Positions 2,708 through 53,959 of a stretch of DNA of 64,000 bases are shown one piece after another. The notes beneath the pieces are model-generated. The model saw nothing but the letters and a program-made list of their open reading frames with translations, did no database searches and was not told the DNA's origin. The stretch is taken from NCBI GenBank assembly GCA_020773975.1, contig GCA_020773975.1_3638.1; one strand, written 5' to 3'. The first letter of the stretch is position 1. The number at the start of each line of letters is the position of its first letter. Source of the DNA: a phage. The position numbers and the translations under genes are program-made.

Positions 2708-3133
2708 TTGAAAATATGTGGTTGTTGTAATAAATTAAAGGATTTCTCTGAGTTTAGTAAAAAATCAGCAGCAAAAGACGGTTATGCAAGTAAATGTAAA
2801 GAGTGCCACAATAACTATGTTAGAACTAAATGGTATCCTAGGAATAAAAAGAAGCACATCTCTTCCGTAGCTAAATATAAGAAGCTAAACCCTTATAAAA
2901 TAATTTCACATAGGTATGGTATACCAGAAGATATTGTTGAAAATATAATGTCAAAAGGTGAATGCGAGATTTGTGGCTCAACAGAAAATCTTGTTTTTGA
3001 TCATATACATCTGACAAATACTGCTAGAGGATGTCTTTGTACTCTATGTAATATAATGATTGGAAGATTGGGTGATACGAACGAAGAGATTTTAGAAAAA
3101 CTCCCTAAAATTTTAGCCTATGTAAGTAAATAA
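2708..3133 (+). CDS. HNH homing endonuclease with N-terminal Cys-rich zinc-binding region
   Basis: ORF track 2660..3133 trimmed to in-frame TTG after AAGAGAGAG RBS (track start overlaps tRNA-Met); CxxC pairs and HNH signature ...NLVFDHIHLTNTARGCLCTLCN... Confidence 0.65.
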   Translation: MKICGCCNKLKDFSEFSKKSAAKDGYASKCKECHNNYVRTKWYPRNKKKHISSVAKYKKLNPYKIISHRYGIPEDIVENIMSKGECEICGSTENLVFDHIHLTNTARGCLCTLCNIMIGRLGDTNEEILEKLPKILAYVSK

Positions 3134-3139
3134 AATTTT

Positions 3140-3172
3140 GATTGGTTCGATTCCAATACTCGCAACCAGAAT
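3140..3172 (+). pseudogene. orphan tRNA 3' fragment (T-arm, acceptor 3' strand, CCA)
   Basis: TTGG-TTCGATT-CCAA followed by ACTCGCA-A-CCA; no complementary 5' acceptor strand upstream. Confidence 0.3.
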
Positions 3173-3298
3173 TAAAGTGGACACTAAGGAAGGTCGTGGC
3201 TGAGTAAACGGTAAGACACTCTCGACATGTAAAGGTTCCTTCGCCACTTTTCTCAAATAACTATAATAATAATCCAATCAATCTCCTCTCCTATGCCT

Positions 3299-3324
3299 AA
3301 CCCCGCCTCTTGCGGGGTTTTTCT
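3299..3324 (+). terminator. rho-independent terminator
   Basis: CCCCGC-CTCTT-GCGGGG hairpin followed by TTTTT. Confidence 0.6.
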
Positions 3325-3373
3325 TTATGTGCTAGTCTTTACGCATCTTGTTTTGTACTCAAGGATAGCTAAG

Positions 3374-4711
3374 ATGTTGCATGTTTTCAAAAAAGAAGAT
3401 TTTCAAAGAGAGTACGACATTTTGTGCTCTTTTATACCAAAAGGTGTTTATGATTTATTGTCGAAGCTGGATGTTAAGATAGCTGGCGGTGCAATAACCT
3501 CTTTGTTCTCTAATAGTAAAGTCAACGATCTTGATTTGTATTTCCCATCTTGGGAAAGCCTTGAGATATTCATTGCGTACATGATGGATAAAAATCTCTT
3601 AGGTGGAAAGTATGATTTAGCCGCACAGACAAACGGATGGGGAAATCAAAAAAGAACTTTTAGGTATTTTTATAACCTTGATAATGGGCAGGGTTCTCAT
3701 TTAGGTTTCACAGATCCTTTGTCAAGATGTAAAAATCTTCATTTTGAAGATGAAGATCTTCCAAACCTTACCAGAGTTGGTGTAACCGATAAGAGTGTGA
3801 TGCTGTACTTTGGGAAAGACCCTGTATTACAGTGTGTTGCTGTGGATGTGTTCAAAACAACAGAAGATATCTTTAGCAAAGTTGATTTTACAATCAACAT
3901 GGGCGCTTTTAACTTCAAGGATGGTGTGTGGGAATTTGATAGCAATTTCTTAAAACATATTGCTCAAAGGGTTTTAGTTGTAAATCATAAGACTGAATAC
4001 CCGATTATATCACTTTTGAGATCTGAAAAATATAAATCTCGTGGTTATACAATTTCGAAAAAAGAGACAATGAAACTGGCTATGACCATTGCTAGCCTTC
4101 AGATACAAAGTTGGGAATCGGCAAAGTCACATCTTAGCGGGATGTACGGAATGAAACTGTCTGATATCTTTGATGAGACAAAGCCGTTTTCACTTGATTT
4201 TTTGGTTGAGTGTCTAGACAGATTAGAATCTGGTTGCCAGCAGATAGACAAAAATGTTACCCCTGTGCAACCGTTGCCGTTTAATGATGTGTCCCAAGTT
4301 AATATGTTCAGTATTTTCCAAAGATTAAGAAAAGCAACAGGCAGGAAATACTTTACAAAACTATATGGGGTTTGTCCTGCTGAAGTTTTCTATCTTATGA
4401 TGCCAACAAAAGATACACATTATGTTGGGCTTCACAAAGAAGATATAGCAAATAATTTTCCAACTCTCAGACTTTATGTTGATGAAACGGAGGCAAGAGG
4501 AGAGTACAAAATTCTGTGTGAGAACGGAGAGATAGATGGCTATGGGTTTACAATATATCGGCCAGGTGCAGTTCTGTTAAAGGTTTCTGTAAGCGATACG
4601 TCAAAGATCCAATACGATATAGGTTATTTTAATGATTTGTGTATTTCTGAAAACAGAAAAACAACACTGAAAATTGAAAACATTATTGAGTGTGATGGGG
4701 ATATATCATGA
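3374..4711 (+). CDS. putative tRNA nucleotidyltransferase-like (CCA-adding/poly(A) polymerase family) protein
   Basis: ORF trimmed to ATG after AAGGA RBS; head motif KIAGGAITSLF...NDLDLYF aligns with GGAVRD...DxD, and SKVDFTINMGAF aligns with RRDxTINA at matching spacing. Confidence 0.5.
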   Translation: MLHVFKKEDFQREYDILCSFIPKGVYDLLSKLDVKIAGGAITSLFSNSKVNDLDLYFPSWESLEIFIAYMMDKNLLGGKYDLAAQTNGWGNQKRTFRYFYNLDNGQGSHLGFTDPLSRCKNLHFEDEDLPNLTRVGVTDKSVMLYFGKDPVLQCVAVDVFKTTEDIFSKVDFTINMGAFNFKDGVWEFDSNFLKHIAQRVLVVNHKTEYPIISLLRSEKYKSRGYTISKKETMKLAMTIASLQIQSWESAKSHLSGMYGMKLSDIFDETKPFSLDFLVECLDRLESGCQQIDKNVTPVQPLPFNDVSQVNMFSIFQRLRKATGRKYFTKLYGVCPAEVFYLMMPTKDTHYVGLHKEDIANNFPTLRLYVDETEARGEYKILCENGEIDGYGFTIYRPGAVLLKVSVSDTSKIQYDIGYFNDLCISENRKTTLKIENIIECDGDIS

Positions 4712-46466: not shown

Positions 46467-46838
46467 TTAATTAGCCAATTCAGCATCCAACGACATTATA
46501 TACTCAGGTAGCTTTCGGATGTTCTCATACAGCACAATCTCTCCGTGTGTCAATGGCCTGATTTCTTTATCCACACCAACATTATTATGGTAATCCCAAT
46601 CGGCATCAACATGGACGAAGACCAGTGTTCCTCTATTGCCAGCCTTAGCGTCCTTTCTTACGATAATCTCTCCGTCTATTGAAGGTAGGCATCTTTTGAA
46701 GAATTTGTTTAAAAGTTTTTGTTGAATTGCTTCTGCCAAGATCATTTTGTCTTGGCTATCTACGATTCTTTTGATTTCAGAGTCGTTTACTTCAACATCA
46801 ATAAGTTGTGTTGTTGTCTGGGTTCCTTTTACTTTCAT
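46467..46838 (-). CDS. hypothetical protein (123 aa)
   Basis: ORF track. Confidence 0.3.
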   Translation of the reverse strand: MKVKGTQTTTQLIDVEVNDSEIKRIVDSQDKMILAEAIQQKLLNKFFKRCLPSIDGEIIVRKDAKAGNRGTLVFVHVDADWDYHNNVGVDKEIRPLTHGEIVLYENIRKLPEYIMSLDAELAN

Positions 46839-46883
46839 GCCACCTCTTCTTTTAAAAAGGTGCTTTTCAGCACCTTACCATTT

Positions 46884-47183
46884 TTAGTGAGAATCTGCCC
46901 ATGTGTATCCACAAAGATATTCTCCTGTAATTAAAACTGGAAGCCCCATTATCTTAGATGCTTTTTCTACACATTTTGTTGCAAGCTCTCCTACTGGGCA
47001 ATGCAGTATCCTGTATTTCCCATACACATCAGGTTCAACAATAACTCTACCCGCTTTCACATAATGTCCGTCGAAACGATGACCTTTTTCAAGCATCATA
47101 TCTACATAGCTTTGTGCCGCCTCTAAGTTAGAATGCTCCGTTATTGATTTAAATCTTTCCGGTACTTGTACCTGTATCTCATC
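46884..47183 (-). CDS. DNA polymerase (family A), exon 2 (motif C to C-terminus)
   Basis: Begins DEIQVQV (motif C HDE completed by exon 1 His) and ends ...GYTWADSH like Pol I-type C-termini. Confidence 0.65.
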   Translation of the reverse strand, partial: DEIQVQVPERFKSITEHSNLEAAQSYVDMMLEKGHRFDGHYVKAGRVIVEPDVYGKYRILHCPVGELATKCVEKASKIMGLPVLITGEYLCGYTWADSH

Positions 47184-47492
47184 CATCAGTTCAGAGAGTT
47201 CGTTACGCTCTCCCGCACCATTACGTGCATAGCCACAAGATTTCTCCTGTGGGTCGGACTATCTCATCCTCCTGATATTAAGGAGGCCTCCCGTTTCGAC
47301 CGCACTTGCTGGCCTACTCTACTCGCTTTCACATTACTAGTGTGCTTTCGATAGTCTCTGAACGTTCATCCCATAGGGATGCTTCGCTGCGGATTAGCAT
47401 ATTGAACTTTTGCTACTTTTACGTATAAAAGCCAGCTTAGCCTTCCCGTCAATTAGAGAGGTTTTCGACATGCATTACTGCATGAAGCCACA
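47184..47492 (-). mobile_element. group I intron (about 309 nt, no ORF) in the DNA polymerase gene
   Basis: On coding strand: exon ends CCAT, GTGG guide-like sequence 10 nt in, P AATTGACGGGAA, Q AATCCGCAGC, R GTTCAGAGACTATC, S GAGATAGTCC, terminal G before GATGAG; splicing restores VIYYH-DEIQV. Confidence 0.6.
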
Positions 47493-49913
47493 ATGTTATT
47501 TATGGTAGTAGATAACCCTCCTGACACCTTGGTCGTACCATCCCCATTTCACCAATTCCCAATGGAACAGGACTCCCATGAGGTCAAACAATGAAGCACC
47601 ACCGTTTTGTTGGTAAGCATTCAGCAGAGAATGTTTAGAACGAGTCCAAATTTTACGCCCGTCCATGCCTGGAATATAGCGTCTCCCATTTGCCTCCCAG
47701 AATTTTTCCAACCACTCCCTACGCATTTTCAACCCGAAGTTACTATCCCAGAATGCATCTATTACAGCCTGTGCTCTATTAAGGGGGATACCCAGCATTG
47801 CGGCTATCTTAGGAGCTTGTGCTCCATACATAATTCCATACGTAACCCCCTTTCCTCCAGAGCGTGTTACCTCCTTTCCTGCTGCTATTGTGTATGCTCT
47901 TGCGTTTCGTTCATGGGCATCCTCTTCCATCATGATACGTAAATACTCACCACCATCAAACTCAAAAGCCCCTGCCGCTGCAATCATACCTTCTAAGTTA
48001 GATCCATCACAACCCATCAGGTAGTAGCCTTCAGGGACTGTCCAAAGACCCCGCATTTCTTTTCCCAACAAAACCTTCGGATCAGGCTTGGGCATGTTTG
48101 CGCAAACAGTATGCTTGCACCTGCCCGTGTTAGTGATTCCAGAAAAACGTGCTGGAAGTTTTCCGTCAATGTCTAAACGAGGGTGATTTAATAACCCTGT
48201 ATCCGTCTTATCCTCATCCATTGGGTCTAAAACAGATCGCCTGTTACGAAGTGATAGCCACTTAACAATCTGTTTTGCCATATGCACATCAATTTTCTCC
48301 AAATTTGGACACAGATGCCCAAAATTATCTTTTAATTGAGGAGATGTCGGTAACTGGCGTGCTTTACGCCGAAATTTCTTAAATATCTCTGAATAACCCC
48401 TTTCAGATGCATGGCGATGGTCAAACTTACGCTCTGAAATGTTGAATTTCTCATCTGAATCATTAAGGTAGTCAAGAATAAGAGATTTATACTCAGACTC
48501 TGCCAACTCTTCTATGTACTTCTTAACTAGTACATCAATTTCAGAATCTTCACGAGTCTTTTTAAATTGATCCTTAGTAACATCTTTTACGCGCCACAGT
48601 GTAGGTTTCCAACCAGCATCTTTGATCAAATATTTTTTAATATCATCCTGATTAGAGATTTTCATTGGAACCATTAAATCTGGCATTTTTCTGTTTCGAA
48701 GGTCTTCTTTAGCCTTCTCTAGAAGATCCGGCGGTAAAGGTTCGAGTGTGTTCTCTTTGGTTCGCTGGGAACGAATGAAATCACCGTATAAAGCCGGATC
48801 TTCAATGCCATTCTGGATGCAATATCTCTCCCCTGCTGCACTTACATCCCCATTGCTCTTAAAAGCTGTTTTTGGTGGAGCTTTAAACTCCAGAGCTTCC
48901 CTGTTAACAGGATAGCCAAGTTTATATTCCAACCAATTCCACCCATGATGAGATATATTACCCGCTGTGTCAAAAGGGTTAGCTGGGAATTTTGGTTGTT
49001 GAGATTTCGTCATCTCTTTTTTTGGAAGAAGTGGTTCTACCTCTTCTTCAATTTCTCGCATCATCTTATCTATGCGATCTCTTAATTTTTCTGCCTCCTC
49101 CCGATTAAAGTATACGCCTTGTATTTCTTGCTCTATCATCAAATAGTCTGTGAGCATTCTCCTACGTAATGCATTTTTCCAATTAATCTGGTGCATCCCG
49201 TGAGGTTTATCAGTGTACATAAACTGCTTGTCATCAGGCCATCGCGTACCATTTGACTCATCAATAAGAGCTTTCCACACAAGTTCGTTAATGATAACGT
49301 CTTCCCACACACGGTTTACATATTCCCACAATGGCTGATTACGCCAATCATCAATCTGCACTTTCTTGTTTGCTACACGATAACCCCATGCCAATAAGCC
49401 GTGTGGCCCAACCCTGTCACGTTTTCCTGTTACAGGGTTCAATACAGAATCTGGGCAGCCATTAGGCAATGGGCGATCTGGGTAAAGAACACGACTCATT
49501 GAAAGAGTGTCGTAAAGATTTACCTGTTTATTACCTATCGTCCCCATACATTTTAGGTCTTTGAACATGTCATATTCAATCCCAGAAAGTTTTTTCCACA
49601 GACGTAAATCATAGCCGAACAGGTTATGTATTGCTATCCCTCTTGGCTCGGTCTGCAACCAAGAGTAAAAATCATCATAAGAAAGGATACGTAAATTAAC
49701 ACCTTCTTTGCTGCGTGCAAAATTAACTGCACTCTGGTATTCCTTGTGAGCAGGATCGAGAAACAACACCCAGTTATTTACAGCATATTCTTTAAAAAGT
49801 GTGCAGTGATATTTAGTTGCCTCTTCTAATAATCCGTCAGCTTCGTTATCTCCGACAAAAAGCCCTTTCATACTCCTCCTATTCAAGATGGGCTTGACTG
49901 TATCGTCGCCCAT
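47493..49913 (-). CDS. DNA polymerase (family A), exon 1
   Basis: Pol I-like motif B RSGGKGVTYGIMYG and pre-motif C NAYQQNGGASLFDLMGVLF...RRVIYYH; ORF track stop lies within the intron. Confidence 0.7.
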
Positions 49914-50066: not shown

Positions 50067-53039
50067 TCAAAATGGAGAATCGCTATCTAAATCTTCAGGT
50101 TGCTCAATCACAACAGCAGGTTCTTGTTGAGGAACAGAAACAGCAATTTTCCCCACAGGTGTTTCAAGTTCCAGACTTTGAATCATTGATTTAGGTCTTA
50201 GCATTACCTCCCCGTTGAGTTTAAACATATTGTCTTCCCACACCCATCCTGACGCATCAGAAAACTGACCATTATCATCCATAATCAGGGTATCCGCTAT
50301 GCCTAATTTTTTGTGTGGACGGTTTTTCAAAACAACACTACGAATACGCCCACGAGATCGGTCAGGGAGTTCTTCAGGCTCGACACCTAAGACAACCCAC
50401 GATAACTGTTCGAGTGCTGCACTATTTCCTGTGACAAAAATATGTCCGTTGCGGCGTGCCACCCACATACCGGATGGTAATGTAAAGCAATACTTGCGAC
50501 CATCTGGGGAAGGTACACGTTTAATAGAAGATTTATTTTTCCCTCCTTTACGTATATGCATATACTTTGTGGCACAAACTCTTACTACATACAGAGGTTT
50601 GTGATCATATTTACCATCAAACGCACCATTGCCATTTTTTACAACAGACACAGACGTTCTATGCCCACAAGCACTGTAAGCAAATTGTAGGAAATCTGCC
50701 TCAAATTTGTTAATGGTTGATACCCTGTTTCTGTTTACAGAATCACCATCCCAATACATGACTTCATCACAGATAATCTCCAACTCGTGCTGTTTAAGAT
50801 TAAACCATTCCTTTGTCACCCCTTTATACCCACAAGGGGCTTTAAATTGGTACTCTGTTCTGCCTTCATGCTTCCCGTGCAAATCAAAACTCTTGTAAGG
50901 AGTGTTCGTCTTCTTCAGTAGCATCTCAAGGCGTTGTTTCTTACGTTCTTTTTTGATGCGTACAGCTACCCTTCCCGTTGATTCAGTAAGAACCGTCCCA
51001 TCAGCATTTACAGCTATCTGTAAACGTAGTTGATCATCAGTTAACCCTAATGAACCATCACATCCAGTGGTGAATGTAGTAGGTATTTTACCACGCATAC
51101 CTGATCGTTTATTGGTATGGTCATGAACAACCTCCTGCATAGTTTTCATACGAAAAATATCAGGCGTTCGATCGTTTACATACACAACACGATGTTCATC
51201 GCTCAACATCATGTCTACAACATGGCTATTAGAAAGATGCCACATTTCATTACAAGGTAGATTAATGTACGCCTCGGGATTTACGAAGGTCATTACACCA
51301 TTTTTATCGTGTTGTGCAACCAAATCTCCTTCTACGTATTCATCAATACGTTTCCAGCCTTGCGGGGTTAAGAACTCTGTGCTTGCATCAACACAACCAC
51401 GGAGATCCTCTTTCCGCACAGGATACCAAAACGGTAACAAATTACCTTCTTTATCTTTCGGAATTTGTATATCAACACGCTTCATATGACTGATACTGAG
51501 GATAAACACGTCATATTTTTTGCAGAAGGCAGCCAATTCCGTCATGATGTTATCTAAATCTCTTCGCTCGTTATCGGATTTTAATCCTGATATCACCATC
51601 GATAAGTGATCTAAGATAATCCATCTACACCCATCAAGGAAAACCATCTGTTTCAATTTTTGTAGTAATTGGTCAGTTGGTATTGAACCAAAGTGATCGA
51701 AAATTTTAACCTTATCTTCGGCAATCCATCGTTGGTGTATAGCTAAGTGCTGCTCATCGGTAAGGAATTGTTCTGGGTCTGCAACAAATGCTTTCGGGTC
51801 AATCTTTAGCTCCTCAGCATATAAACTGTTTACAGACTCCTCCTCATCCTCCTCTAGACGAATAATTGCAATTTTCTCGTTCTCTTTCCAACCGTCTAAT
51901 CGGGGAATATCCATGTTACGGAGGTACTCGATAATTGCATACTCAATCTTTCTTGAGAAAGTTGATTTCCCAGCTCCAGATGGGCCTGTCAGTGTCCACA
52001 ATTCTCCTGTTCGTGGGCCTCTTGTTAGTTCATACAAACGAGGAAAGCACGGCAACGGAACGCCATCTTTTTTCTTTTTACGGAGATTTTCAATAGATAT
52101 TCTCTCCAACCCAATCAATTTGTCTGGAACATATTTATCCTGCGCTTTAGCAAACATATTCCAGATATCCATCCATTTACCTTTTTTGTAAATATCCCGG
52201 ATATCTTTAACACCATTTGGGTCATTGCGCTCATTTGGGTATCGTGCAACATAGATGTTGTCAGACAGTAAAAAACCTGCGACATCATCTGTGGCTTCCT
52301 TACCTTTCTTAATTCTGTGTTCTTTTTCCCTTGCTGTGGCTTCATCATTGTCTAAGCCAAGGACAATCTTTTCATATTCCCTGATAAACTTTTCGTTGTG
52401 GGCGAATGTATCCACAGCATTGGCTGTACCACAGTTCAACCCGATAAAAGGTAATGTCGGGCAATTAGAAACCTCTTCCCCATCCTGAATTGCTTTGATG
52501 CCTTTTAAAGCATTGTTTGCCCACTCACGTACTGAACGTGACGTGTTAGGATTGCTATGAAGGAATTTAATATACTCAAACCCAGCTTGCCAGCCAGCCG
52601 TTACATCACCTTCCCCCTCAACAATAAAGATCTGTTTTTTACCAGATCCCATAGAGGCCTCATGTTGACCAAAAAATTGAGAGGAAGCCTTTACTGTGCC
52701 AACAACAGAGAAATGCCCCTTTTTCTCTTTCGGAACAGTCCAGTCTCGTTTTTTGTACCCTGTCAATTTCCCATATTTGTCATAATATGGAAGATATGTT
52801 GCCACCACTGTAGTACCGTCTTTCAAATCTGTTGCAGATCTGATCTTGAAGTACTTAGCTGCATCTAAACTAATATCCATTTGGGGGACAGCCAAGATCC
52901 TTGTACTATCTAGGACAGACTCTACAGTTTCTTCTTCTTTTTTCTGATAATTCACTTTACCACCACTTTTTGTAGGTCGGAATGCTTTTGGGTTCTCACC
53001 TTCAAAGTATGCACCAGCCCCCCATTTTGTCATCTTCAT
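50067..53039 (-). CDS. primase-helicase (TOPRIM primase plus DnaB-like helicase) containing an intein
   Basis: TOPRIM IFIVEGEGDVTAGW, Walker A TGPSGAGKST, Walker B WIILDHLSMV, motif H4 split as DLRG-[intein]-SAALEQ. Confidence 0.7.
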   Translation of the reverse strand: MKMTKWGAGAYFEGENPKAFRPTKSGGKVNYQKKEEETVESVLDSTRILAVPQMDISLDAAKYFKIRSATDLKDGTTVVATYLPYYDKYGKLTGYKKRDWTVPKEKKGHFSVVGTVKASSQFFGQHEASMGSGKKQIFIVEGEGDVTAGWQAGFEYIKFLHSNPNTSRSVREWANNALKGIKAIQDGEEVSNCPTLPFIGLNCGTANAVDTFAHNEKFIREYEKIVLGLDNDEATAREKEHRIKKGKEATDDVAGFLLSDNIYVARYPNERNDPNGVKDIRDIYKKGKWMDIWNMFAKAQDKYVPDKLIGLERISIENLRKKKKDGVPLPCFPRLYELTRGPRTGELWTLTGPSGAGKSTFSRKIEYAIIEYLRNMDIPRLDGWKENEKIAIIRLEEDEEESVNSLYAEELKIDPKAFVADPEQFLTDEQHLAIHQRWIAEDKVKIFDHFGSIPTDQLLQKLKQMVFLDGCRWIILDHLSMVISGLKSDNERRDLDNIMTELAAFCKKYDVFILSISHMKRVDIQIPKDKEGNLLPFWYPVRKEDLRGCVDASTEFLTPQGWKRIDEYVEGDLVAQHDKNGVMTFVNPEAYINLPCNEMWHLSNSHVVDMMLSDEHRVVYVNDRTPDIFRMKTMQEVVHDHTNKRSGMRGKIPTTFTTGCDGSLGLTDDQLRLQIAVNADGTVLTESTGRVAVRIKKERKKQRLEMLLKKTNTPYKSFDLHGKHEGRTEYQFKAPCGYKGVTKEWFNLKQHELEIICDEVMYWDGDSVNRNRVSTINKFEADFLQFAYSACGHRTSVSVVKNGNGAFDGKYDHKPLYVVRVCATKYMHIRKGGKNKSSIKRVPSPDGRKYCFTLPSGMWVARRNGHIFVTGNSAALEQLSWVVLGVEPEELPDRSRGRIRSVVLKNRPHKKLGIADTLIMDDNGQFSDASGWVWEDNMFKLNGEVMLRPKSMIQSLELETPVGKIAVSVPQQEPAVVIEQPEDLDSDSPF
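50424..51395 (-). mobile_element. intein (324 aa) with LAGLIDADG-type motifs in the helicase domain
   Basis: Starts CVDASTEFLTPQGW, ends HIFVTGN followed by Ser; internal LQIAVNADG and ICDEVMYWDG; end blocks closely match the terminase intein. Confidence 0.7.
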
Positions 53040-53048
53040 CTCTTCTCC

Positions 53049-53240
53049 TTAGAAGGGTTTGCTAACTACAGCCATATACCAGCCATTACACACAGATATA
53101 CCACCTGAAATACAGTAACCTTTTCTAAACCAAGTGTTTAGCTTTAATTCTAATTCTGAAATACTAGTTCCTGTGAGAATCTTGACATTTTTATCCACCA
53201 GCCCTCCTAAAATCATTATATAGGAATACAGCTTTGGCAA
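53049..53240 (-). CDS. hypothetical small protein (63 aa)
   Basis: ORF track. Confidence 0.25.
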   Translation of the reverse strand: MPKLYSYIMILGGLVDKNVKILTGTSISELELKLNTWFRKGYCISGGISVCNGWYMAVVSKPF

Positions 53241-53913
53241 ATCCTCTTGGGGTTAACGATCTTATAACCTTTGTCTTTTTTGATTTACCACCCAATTTTA
53301 GGTGCTGCTCAGAATACCCGCTTACCACGGGAACAGGTAATTTCTCAGGCATCCTAAAACCATTGCCTGTCCACAAACAAGTCCTCTTAGGGTAGGCATC
53401 TCTGGGTTTTATGTATTCTGGAAAAAACGGATGAACATCATTCTCTGATAGATACCCGCCGTACTCATAAGGATGAAATGAATGATCTGGTTTACGCCAC
53501 AGAGAAGATAGAACACTAACAGGATTTTCTATCATGTAAGGGCAGTCGTATTCATCTGCCAACCTTGCTGCCACCTTTGCTGTATTTACAGCCTTTATCT
53601 GGAATAAAGGGTCTTTTGCAGCTTTTCTTGCGAAATGCGCTGCACCACTAACAGCCATGTCAGTACATGGTGGAGATGCGAATATAATACTTGGCTTACA
53701 GATCCCTATCTCTGTTGGGTTAAACTGGTCATCTATCCAAACATTAATGTATTCTATATTTTTATGTTTTACTCGGATACTTTCATAACCGCCGTGATCA
53801 GCGCCATCATAGTTAAGGCATATTACTTTGTACCCATTCTTTGCCCACTCATAACCCATGATGCCTGATCCGTCAAACATGTACAAAACCGTATCACTCA
53901 ATACACCTCCCAT
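53191..53913 (-). CDS. putative DNA methyltransferase-like protein (cytosine-5 MTase-like motifs)
   Basis: MFDGSGIMG resembles motif I (FxGxG), FASPPCTDMAVSG resembles motif IV (PPCQ with Thr for Gln), IENPVS resembles the ENV motif; shorter than typical C5-MTases. Confidence 0.4.
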   Translation of the reverse strand: MGGVLSDTVLYMFDGSGIMGYEWAKNGYKVICLNYDGADHGGYESIRVKHKNIEYINVWIDDQFNPTEIGICKPSIIFASPPCTDMAVSGAAHFARKAAKDPLFQIKAVNTAKVAARLADEYDCPYMIENPVSVLSSLWRKPDHSFHPYEYGGYLSENDVHPFFPEYIKPRDAYPKRTCLWTGNGFRMPEKLPVPVVSGYSEQHLKLGGKSKKTKVIRSLTPRGFAKAVFLYNDFRRAGG

Positions 53914-53959
53914 ACCAGAAAACAGGCCCGTAATGTGGGCCTTTTGAGTACACTAGAAA

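Follow-up and report, generated by a model that had tools for sequence, protein, structure and literature searches.

The minus-strand gene at positions 53191..53913 of a 64,000-nucleotide stretch of phage DNA (contig GCA_020773975.1_3638.1; hereafter the window, at its full length) encodes a protein that we believe, with a probability of roughly 0.8, to be an active orphan DNA cytosine-5 (C5) methyltransferase dependent on S-adenosylmethionine (SAM). It belongs to a widespread short phage family and probably serves restriction evasion. The presence of a short C5 methyltransferase gene is already known, because the orthologue of the window gene in Escherichia phage Av-05 is annotated, the family is catalogued and one family member has been tested. 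The value for annotation is small; the name we would give is phage orphan DNA cytosine-5 methyltransferase, following the RefSeq record of Av-05. The family itself is among the commonest methyltransferases of enterobacterial phages and is the trigger of a well-studied retron.

The protein matched PHROG 757, "DNA methyltransferase", with an expectation value (E) of 3.1e-85, residues 7-234 aligning to profile positions 15-219 of 247. Homologues were detected by tblastn in 1510 of ~50,700 phage records, in phages of Escherichia, Klebsiella, Salmonella, Shigella, Campylobacter, Vibrio, Arthrobacter and other hosts, under mixed annotations (hypothetical protein, DNA methyltransferase or Dcm-like C5 cytosine methyltransferase). 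In a large protein collection the family formed 4630 clusters at 90% identity, all proteins among the matches listed there having 219-259 residues, and an exhaustive HMMER search returned 1044 representatives at 50% identity. The homologues among the matches listed were mostly 214-260 residues long, a range that the window protein fits with its 240 residues.

A preliminary description of this DNA had pointed to the open reading frame (ORF) and to three motifs in its product, FDGSGIMG, PPCT and IENPVS, and all of these were found in the 240-residue translation, two of the motifs also being checked against the raw sequence. Conservation was counted in a family alignment of 65 sequences, down to 29% identity, and is given in the numbering of the window protein. 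Gly90, Glu129, Pro131, Pro148, Tyr174, Lys176, Pro189 and Gly224 were invariant (65/65), and Cys83 (63/65), Thr84 (60/65), Asn130 (63/65), Thr178 (63/65), Trp181 (64/65), Arg218 (64/65) and Ala228 (62/65) were nearly so. The window copy retained every one of these residues, and the family signature of PPCT, ENP, Tyr174, Lys176, Trp181 and RSxTPRG was complete in it. The Thr noted earlier in the place of the usual motif IV Gln is present; as Thr84 is nearly invariant across the family, it is a family signature and not a sign of decay or a peculiarity of this copy. The comparison of IENPVS with the canonical ENV held for Glu129, which aligned to the E119-N-V of M.HhaI, but not for the third residue, which is the invariant Pro, so that the motif is really E-N-P. 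Similarly, FDGSGIMG aligned to motif I of M.HhaI as had been proposed, but its first Gly varies across the wider family, where the pattern is (F/Y)-D-x-(S/T)-G.

The family was aligned by hhalign to a set of seven canonical C5 enzymes with a probability of 92% and E of 6e-7, and motifs I, IV and VI coincided. The canonical alignment consisted of phage records together with M.HhaI and DNMT3A sequences that were verified by tblastn and alignment. Residues 3-137 aligned to M.HhaI 8-127, with Phe13 falling in motif I, Cys83 opposite Cys81 and Glu129 opposite Glu119. Against single canonical sequences the alignment was too weak past motif VI, and even with the seven-sequence alignment the confidence in the C-terminal half was near zero, so the segment RSLTPRGFAKAV there may correspond to either motif X or motif IX. 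An AlphaFold2 model built on the family alignment (predicted local distance difference test, pLDDT, 94.3; predicted template modelling score, pTM, 0.91) had seven strands, and the window protein is thus predicted to have the seven-stranded catalytic-domain fold specific to C5 enzymes, a subfamily of the class I SAM methyltransferases. When the model was compared with the PDB by Foldseek, the catalytic domains of DNMT3A, DNMT3B and DNMT3C made up all 50 of the matches listed (E ~1e-5, template modelling (TM) score 0.37-0.52), and the nearest models in a viral structure library were phage proteins named DNA-cytosine methylase. The profile search proposed in the preliminary description as a check for a fold other than that of a methyltransferase turned up none; the searches favoured a methyltransferase. 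KtrA, the top PDB match with a broader profile, was set aside as a chance Rossmann match.

Evidence for activity within the family comes from phage K42 of the Drexlerviridae. All K42 mutants that escaped retron Ec86 (also called Eco1) had lost a 711-bp "dcm" gene, and the toxicity of expressing this gene depended on the presence of the retron (bioRxiv 10.1101/2023.08.16.553469). The same preprint, for which PMC12916289 lists among its references the later publication Wang et al., Cell Rep 2024;43:114857, reported that expression of K42 dcm led to more 5-methylcytosine (5mC) on the multicopy single-stranded DNA (msDNA) of the retron, as measured by liquid chromatography coupled to mass spectrometry (LC-MS). 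A C82A/E128A/K175A/K176A mutant, in which K175 and K176 had been chosen as substrate-binding residues, neither triggered retron-dependent toxicity nor gave a 5mC signal, and 34 of 35 retron-sensitive phages carried a dcm gene (bioRxiv 10.1101/2023.08.16.553469). The Dcm protein of Warwickvirus Jahat_MG145 has Cys, Glu, Lys and Lys at exactly positions 82, 128, 175 and 176 from its annotated start, and shares 55% identity with the window protein over 227 residues (E 3e-92). These two observations place K42 Dcm and the window protein in the same family. With an offset of +1, the window equivalents of the four mutated residues are Cys83, Glu129, Lys176 and Arg177. The earlier reading of the product as a short C5 methyltransferase-like protein is thus supported both by the profile-profile alignment and by an active homologue of 55% identity, and by analogy with the latter the window copy is likely to be active as well. 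Apart from the retron Ec86 preprint, nothing was found in literature searches on a structure, a methylome or a measured recognition sequence of the short family; a retron paper on Bas51 was discarded as a source, as it concerns an adenine methyltransferase.

The gene also appears to be maintained by selection. Av-05 (Avunavirus, Vequintavirinae) and four related records were 94-96% identical to the 6 kb surrounding the gene, and the Av-05 orthologue, Av05_00139 (YP_009111213.1; "DNA methyltransferase" in the RefSeq record), has the matching location within a block of minus-strand replication genes, next to the primase/helicase gene on the upstream side of the latter. The two proteins differed by 14 amino acids over the 240 codons of the window gene, Ser80 of the window copy in place of Phe80 being one of them and 13 further substitutions the rest. 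With 24 synonymous and 16 non-synonymous changes, the ratio of non-synonymous to synonymous substitution rates (dN/dS) was 0.16, which indicates purifying selection on the methyltransferase gene. Av05_00139 is annotated as 6 codons longer; its upstream ATG is ACG in the window.

By homology, the enzyme would follow the canonical chemistry of M.HhaI and the DNMT enzymes. The target cytosine would be flipped from the helix, the Cys83 thiolate would attack C6 with Glu129 protonating N3, SAM would donate its methyl group to C5, and beta-elimination would release 5-methylcytosine. Since the normal target-recognition domain is absent, we place the choice of site in the variable 25-residue linker (aa 187-211) together with the conserved loop of aa 147-173. 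In the model, aa 147-173 form a helix (148-154) and a long ordered loop; the segment is ~20 residues longer than its M.HhaI counterpart, as read from alignments, and may have a role in DNA contact. It follows strand 6 (SFH, aa 144-146), which aligns with "YSFHAK" of M.HhaI. Strand 7, YPKRTCLWTGNGF, resembles "HRARYFWGN" of DNMT3A, and Lys176 followed by Arg or Lys at 177 recalls the DNMT3A 'RAR'; this region thus resembles motif VIII and is a candidate counterpart of R163/R165 of M.HhaI. Within the C-terminal half, variability was greatest in the linker (mean entropy 2.9 bits, compared with 1.1-1.8 around it), most of all at aa 191-210, with an indel hotspot after aa 198, and we take aa 191-210, judging from sequence, to be a remnant of the target-recognition region. 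The conserved block at the C-terminus most likely corresponds to motif X (compare DNMT3A GRSWSVPVIRHLF), with motif IX (R-x-L-T-P-R-E) as the alternative assignment. The nearly invariant Arg218-Ser219 before the last helix resembles the DNMT3A 'GRS', at a point where hhalign confidence was near zero. Strand 7 is separated from the C-terminal block IRSLTPRGFAKAVF by ~40 residues, compared with ~140 in M.HhaI and ~100 in DNMT3A. Apart from the large catalytic domain of a C5 enzyme there is essentially nothing else in the protein, and the architecture of the family appears close to the smallest among C5 DNA methyltransferases. Two models of uncultured Caudovirales phage proteins in BFVD (A0A6J5SE15 and A0A6J5NPY6, one of them named 'Helicase/UvrB, N-terminal') had the short-methyltransferase fold within 1126 and 1397 residues, at 25% identity and TM ~0.6; the minimal domain therefore also occurs in fusions.

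In the cell, the gene would be expressed with the replication genes, and its location among them agrees with freshly synthesised phage DNA as the substrate. Methylation of phage DNA during replication, with host DNA also affected, would blunt 5mC-sensitive restriction; the cost would be detection of the enzyme by retron Ec86/Eco1. Of the three functions that the preliminary description had offered, a modification enzyme for restriction evasion is the best fit. This benefit to the phage is an inferred one. For K42 Dcm, CCWGG specificity was assumed from host Dcm, with support from msDNA stem CCTGG mutants that lost defence (bioRxiv 10.1101/2023.08.16.553469). Many carriers of the gene were isolated on E. 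coli K-12 according to the host lines of the phage records. E. coli K-12 is McrBC+. Because these carriers grew on such a host, the base before the methylated cytosine is probably not a purine, as would be the case in C(m5C)WGG, although this is no proof of that motif. The specificities of the window-type and K42-type loop variants bear on which restriction systems are evaded and which phages are sensed by retron Ec86.

Several observations weigh against this reading. Pfam (up to E 10), NCBIfam and PDB sequence searches gave no match for the window protein; the best PDB sequence alignment was to M.HaeIII, with motifs I-IV in register at E 0.47 to 1. It took a profile-profile or fold comparison to reveal membership in PF00145, the gathering threshold not being reached, and a precomputed PF00145 match existed for 3 of the 120 homologues among the matches listed. 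The missing match is a sensitivity limit of the model and no evidence against homology. The acidic position of motif II is Asp in 56/65 family members and Asn34 in the subclade of the window protein; the active K42-type enzyme carries the same Asn. Residue 80, just before the PPC of the catalytic Cys, is Phe in 58/65 members and Ser in the window copy. Experimental activity within the family is that of a Drexlerviridae enzyme, K42 Dcm, while the window protein is of a Vequintavirinae lineage, and K42 mutants lacking dcm were viable (bioRxiv 10.1101/2023.08.16.553469). The BASEL study described Vequintavirinae as 'exceptionally susceptible' to the tested restriction systems and reported no link of methyltransferase genes with restriction resistance in Drexlerviridae. 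The benefit of the gene to the phage is therefore presumptive. The type II enzymes of that panel, such as EcoRI and EcoRV, are not known to cut at CCWGG.

A more specific form of the proposal, which we put forward tentatively and consider possible though not probable, is that the protein is a truly minimal C5 methyltransferase without a target-recognition domain. It would read DNA by the 25-residue loop and the conserved insertion, possibly as a DNMT3A-like dimer, and the window-type enzyme with 'GYSEQH' in its loop would then recognise a short or relaxed motif other than CCWGG. If this is true, neither the 'Dcm-like' label nor the CCWGG reasoning for retron Ec86 would extend to the window-type enzyme.

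Among explanations that depart from a C5 methyltransferase acting on duplex DNA, the one suggested by Ser80 and Arg218 is a carboxymethyltransferase like phage CmoX, which would use carboxy-SAM made by host CmoA and yield 5-carboxymethylcytosine instead of 5-methylcytosine. The combination that marks CmoX, namely SPPC, Arg at the position of M.HhaI Asn304 and a nearby CmoA, often with a CmoY ligase, was not found. Ser80, which creates the SPPC, was confined to the window copy, Phe being the residue in most of the family and in Av-05. The assignment of Arg218 to motif X is itself uncertain, and DNMT3A has Arg at the same motif X position (its GRS aligned to GNS). DNMT3A is a SAM-dependent methyltransferase, so Arg218 does not discriminate in favour of CmoX. 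The best tblastn match to CmoA in the 64-kb window had E of 3.9, no amide ligase was annotated in the inspected Av-05 stretches, and LC-MS of the K42 homologue gave 5mC. We consider this explanation very improbable.

Even less credit can be given to a derivative without catalytic activity that would only bind DNA or SAM, such as a regulator or decoy, which would account for the very small size, the lack of a normal target-recognition domain and of a Pfam match, and the replacement of Asp by Asn at the ribose-binding position of motif II and of Phe by Ser80. This inactive derivative had been among the functions first offered, and it is disfavoured by the retention of the catalytic Cys, the Glu and every other invariant residue, by the dN/dS of 0.16, and by the homologue with the same Asn, which makes 5mC on DNA in dependence on its catalytic residues. 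The third function offered, a hypermodification enzyme acting on nucleotides, is disfavoured on the same three grounds. In its broader form of a non-duplex substrate, either free nucleotides before replication or RNA/tRNA as with DNMT2, it is just as poorly placed, given that DNA enzymes outscored DNMT2, that the homologue methylates a DNA stem-loop of msDNA, that the conserved basic Lys176/Arg177 and KLGGKSKKTK would suit DNA binding, and that no further hypermodification genes were annotated in the parts of Av-05 that match the window; moreover, known C5 pyrimidine modification at the nucleotide level uses the thymidylate-synthase fold. The orphan DNA C5 methyltransferase remains the preferred reading, and its features are collected in Table 1.

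Table 1. Positions in the window of the short C5 methyltransferase gene, its conserved and variable segments and the adjoining hairpin
Feature	Position	Strand	Basis
Short C5 DNA methyltransferase coding sequence	53191..53913	(-)	Single ORF, 240 aa, ATG start; orthologue of Av-05 Av05_00139
Motif I region FDGSGIMG, aa 13-20, loop after strand 1, presumed SAM-binding	53854..53877	(-)	hhalign to M.HhaI F18-x-G-x-G
Motif IV PPCT, aa 81-84, catalytic Cys83	53662..53673	(-)	Aligned to M.HhaI Cys81 and DNMT3A 'PCN'; family counts
Motif VI IENPVS, aa 128-133, Glu129	53515..53532	(-)	Aligned to M.HhaI E119-N-V; family counts
Family-specific conserved segment between strands 6 and 7, aa 147-173 (YGGYL, Pro148, Asp172)	53395..53475	(-)	DSSP, pLDDT, conservation
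Motif VIII-like strand 7 and lead-in YPKRTCLWTGNGF, aa 174-186	53356..53394	(-)	Invariant Tyr174 and Lys176; Thr178, Trp181
Short variable linker, aa 187-211, putative specificity loop	53281..53355	(-)	At the usual place of the target-recognition domain and motif IX
C-terminal conserved block IRSLTPRGFAKAVFLYN, aa 217-233, last helix of the model	53215..53265	(-)	Arg218, Gly224 and Ala228 conserved
Terminator-like hairpin AGGCCC-ACATTAC-GGGCCT, then GTTTTCT	53924..53942	(-)	Ends 10 nt upstream of the methyltransferase ATG

The start codon annotated in Av-05, which is ACG in the window, adjoins the G+C-rich hairpin of Table 1. As a guess, this hairpin may limit expression of the methyltransferase, which is of a type reported to be toxic when overexpressed. 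At the other end of the gene, a 63-residue ORF (53049..53240, minus strand) without a Pfam match shares 50 nt with the 3' end of the methyltransferase gene; the Av-05 annotation has a 49-residue hypothetical protein at this site.

The window and Av-05 also differed in mobile elements. The primase/helicase ORF (50067..53039) encodes 990 residues in the window and 666 in Av-05, with 99% identity on either side of an insertion at 50424..51395 (minus strand) of exactly 324 residues (aa 549-872) that is absent from Av-05. The insertion lies in the DnaB-like helicase part and has the hallmarks of an intein, with Cys as its first residue, Asn as its last and Ser following; Pfam matches on the primase/helicase were DnaB_C/AAA_25 only, with no Hint or endonuclease domain. 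The DNA polymerase gene of the window contains an ORF-less group I intron at 47236..47511 (minus strand; Rfam RF00028, 81 bits, E 7e-20) between ORFs 47496..49913 and 46884..47186, and an HNH homing endonuclease gene occupies the counterpart site in Av-05. Three HNH endonuclease genes of Av-05, which interrupt or adjoin the pieces of its DNA polymerase gene, were absent from the window, at ~46838-46886, 47334-47383 and 47831-47836, corresponding to 1005-1626, 2077-2648 and 3098-3835 of the Av-05 stretch compared (L001). Presence and absence of mobile elements (HNH genes against the helicase intein) are thus reciprocal in phages ~95% identical over the 6 kb compared. Av-05 also has a second DNA methyltransferase, Av05_0071 (NC_025830.1 38809-39489; 226 residues), of the amino-methyltransferase type with NPPY, for which tblastn found no counterpart in the 64-kb window.

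Among known enzymes, the DNMT3 catalytic domain is structurally the nearest to the window protein, although sequence identity to the DNMT3A and DNMT3B domains was 11-19% at the TM scores given above. In single-sequence hhalign comparisons, two ordinary phage C5 enzymes scored equal to DNMT3A. The resemblance to DNMT3 may therefore just reflect small size, and we did not adopt a special kinship. M.HhaI and M.HaeIII, the PF00145 enzymes, have a small domain, whereas the window protein has none, and the family differs from canonical type II C5 enzymes in having Thr for Gln after the Cys, ENP for ENV, and a motif IX that is absent or merged.

E. coli Dcm (472 residues, CCWGG) is likewise a C5 DNA methyltransferase, and many records call the phage protein 'Dcm' or 'Dcm-like'. 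A tblastn comparison of E. coli Dcm with the window gave 24% identity over 103 residues, in motifs I-IV only (E 0.19), the hhalign probability with Dcm was 0.2%, and tblastn detected no Vsr homologue in the 64-kb window. Orthology with E. coli Dcm was rejected on the basis of this E value, the half length of the phage protein and the lack of Vsr. "Dcm-like" is thus a functional nickname, and the CCWGG specificity that it implies is assumed.

The closest comparison is with the Drexlerviridae Dcm of the K42 or KarlJaspers type. The two enzymes share their architecture, PPCT, ENP, the motif II Asn and the C-terminal RSLTPRGFA. They differ in lineage, the window type being that of a ~120-kb Vequintavirinae myovirus and the K42 type that of a 51-kb Drexlerviridae siphovirus, and in the variable linker, where the window has 'VVSGYSEQHLK' and the K42 type 'PTEKDNPGWAK' ('GYSEQH' compared with 'DNPGW'). 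This difference in the linker suggests that the recognition sequences may differ as well, and we have not transferred the CCWGG specificity to the window enzyme.

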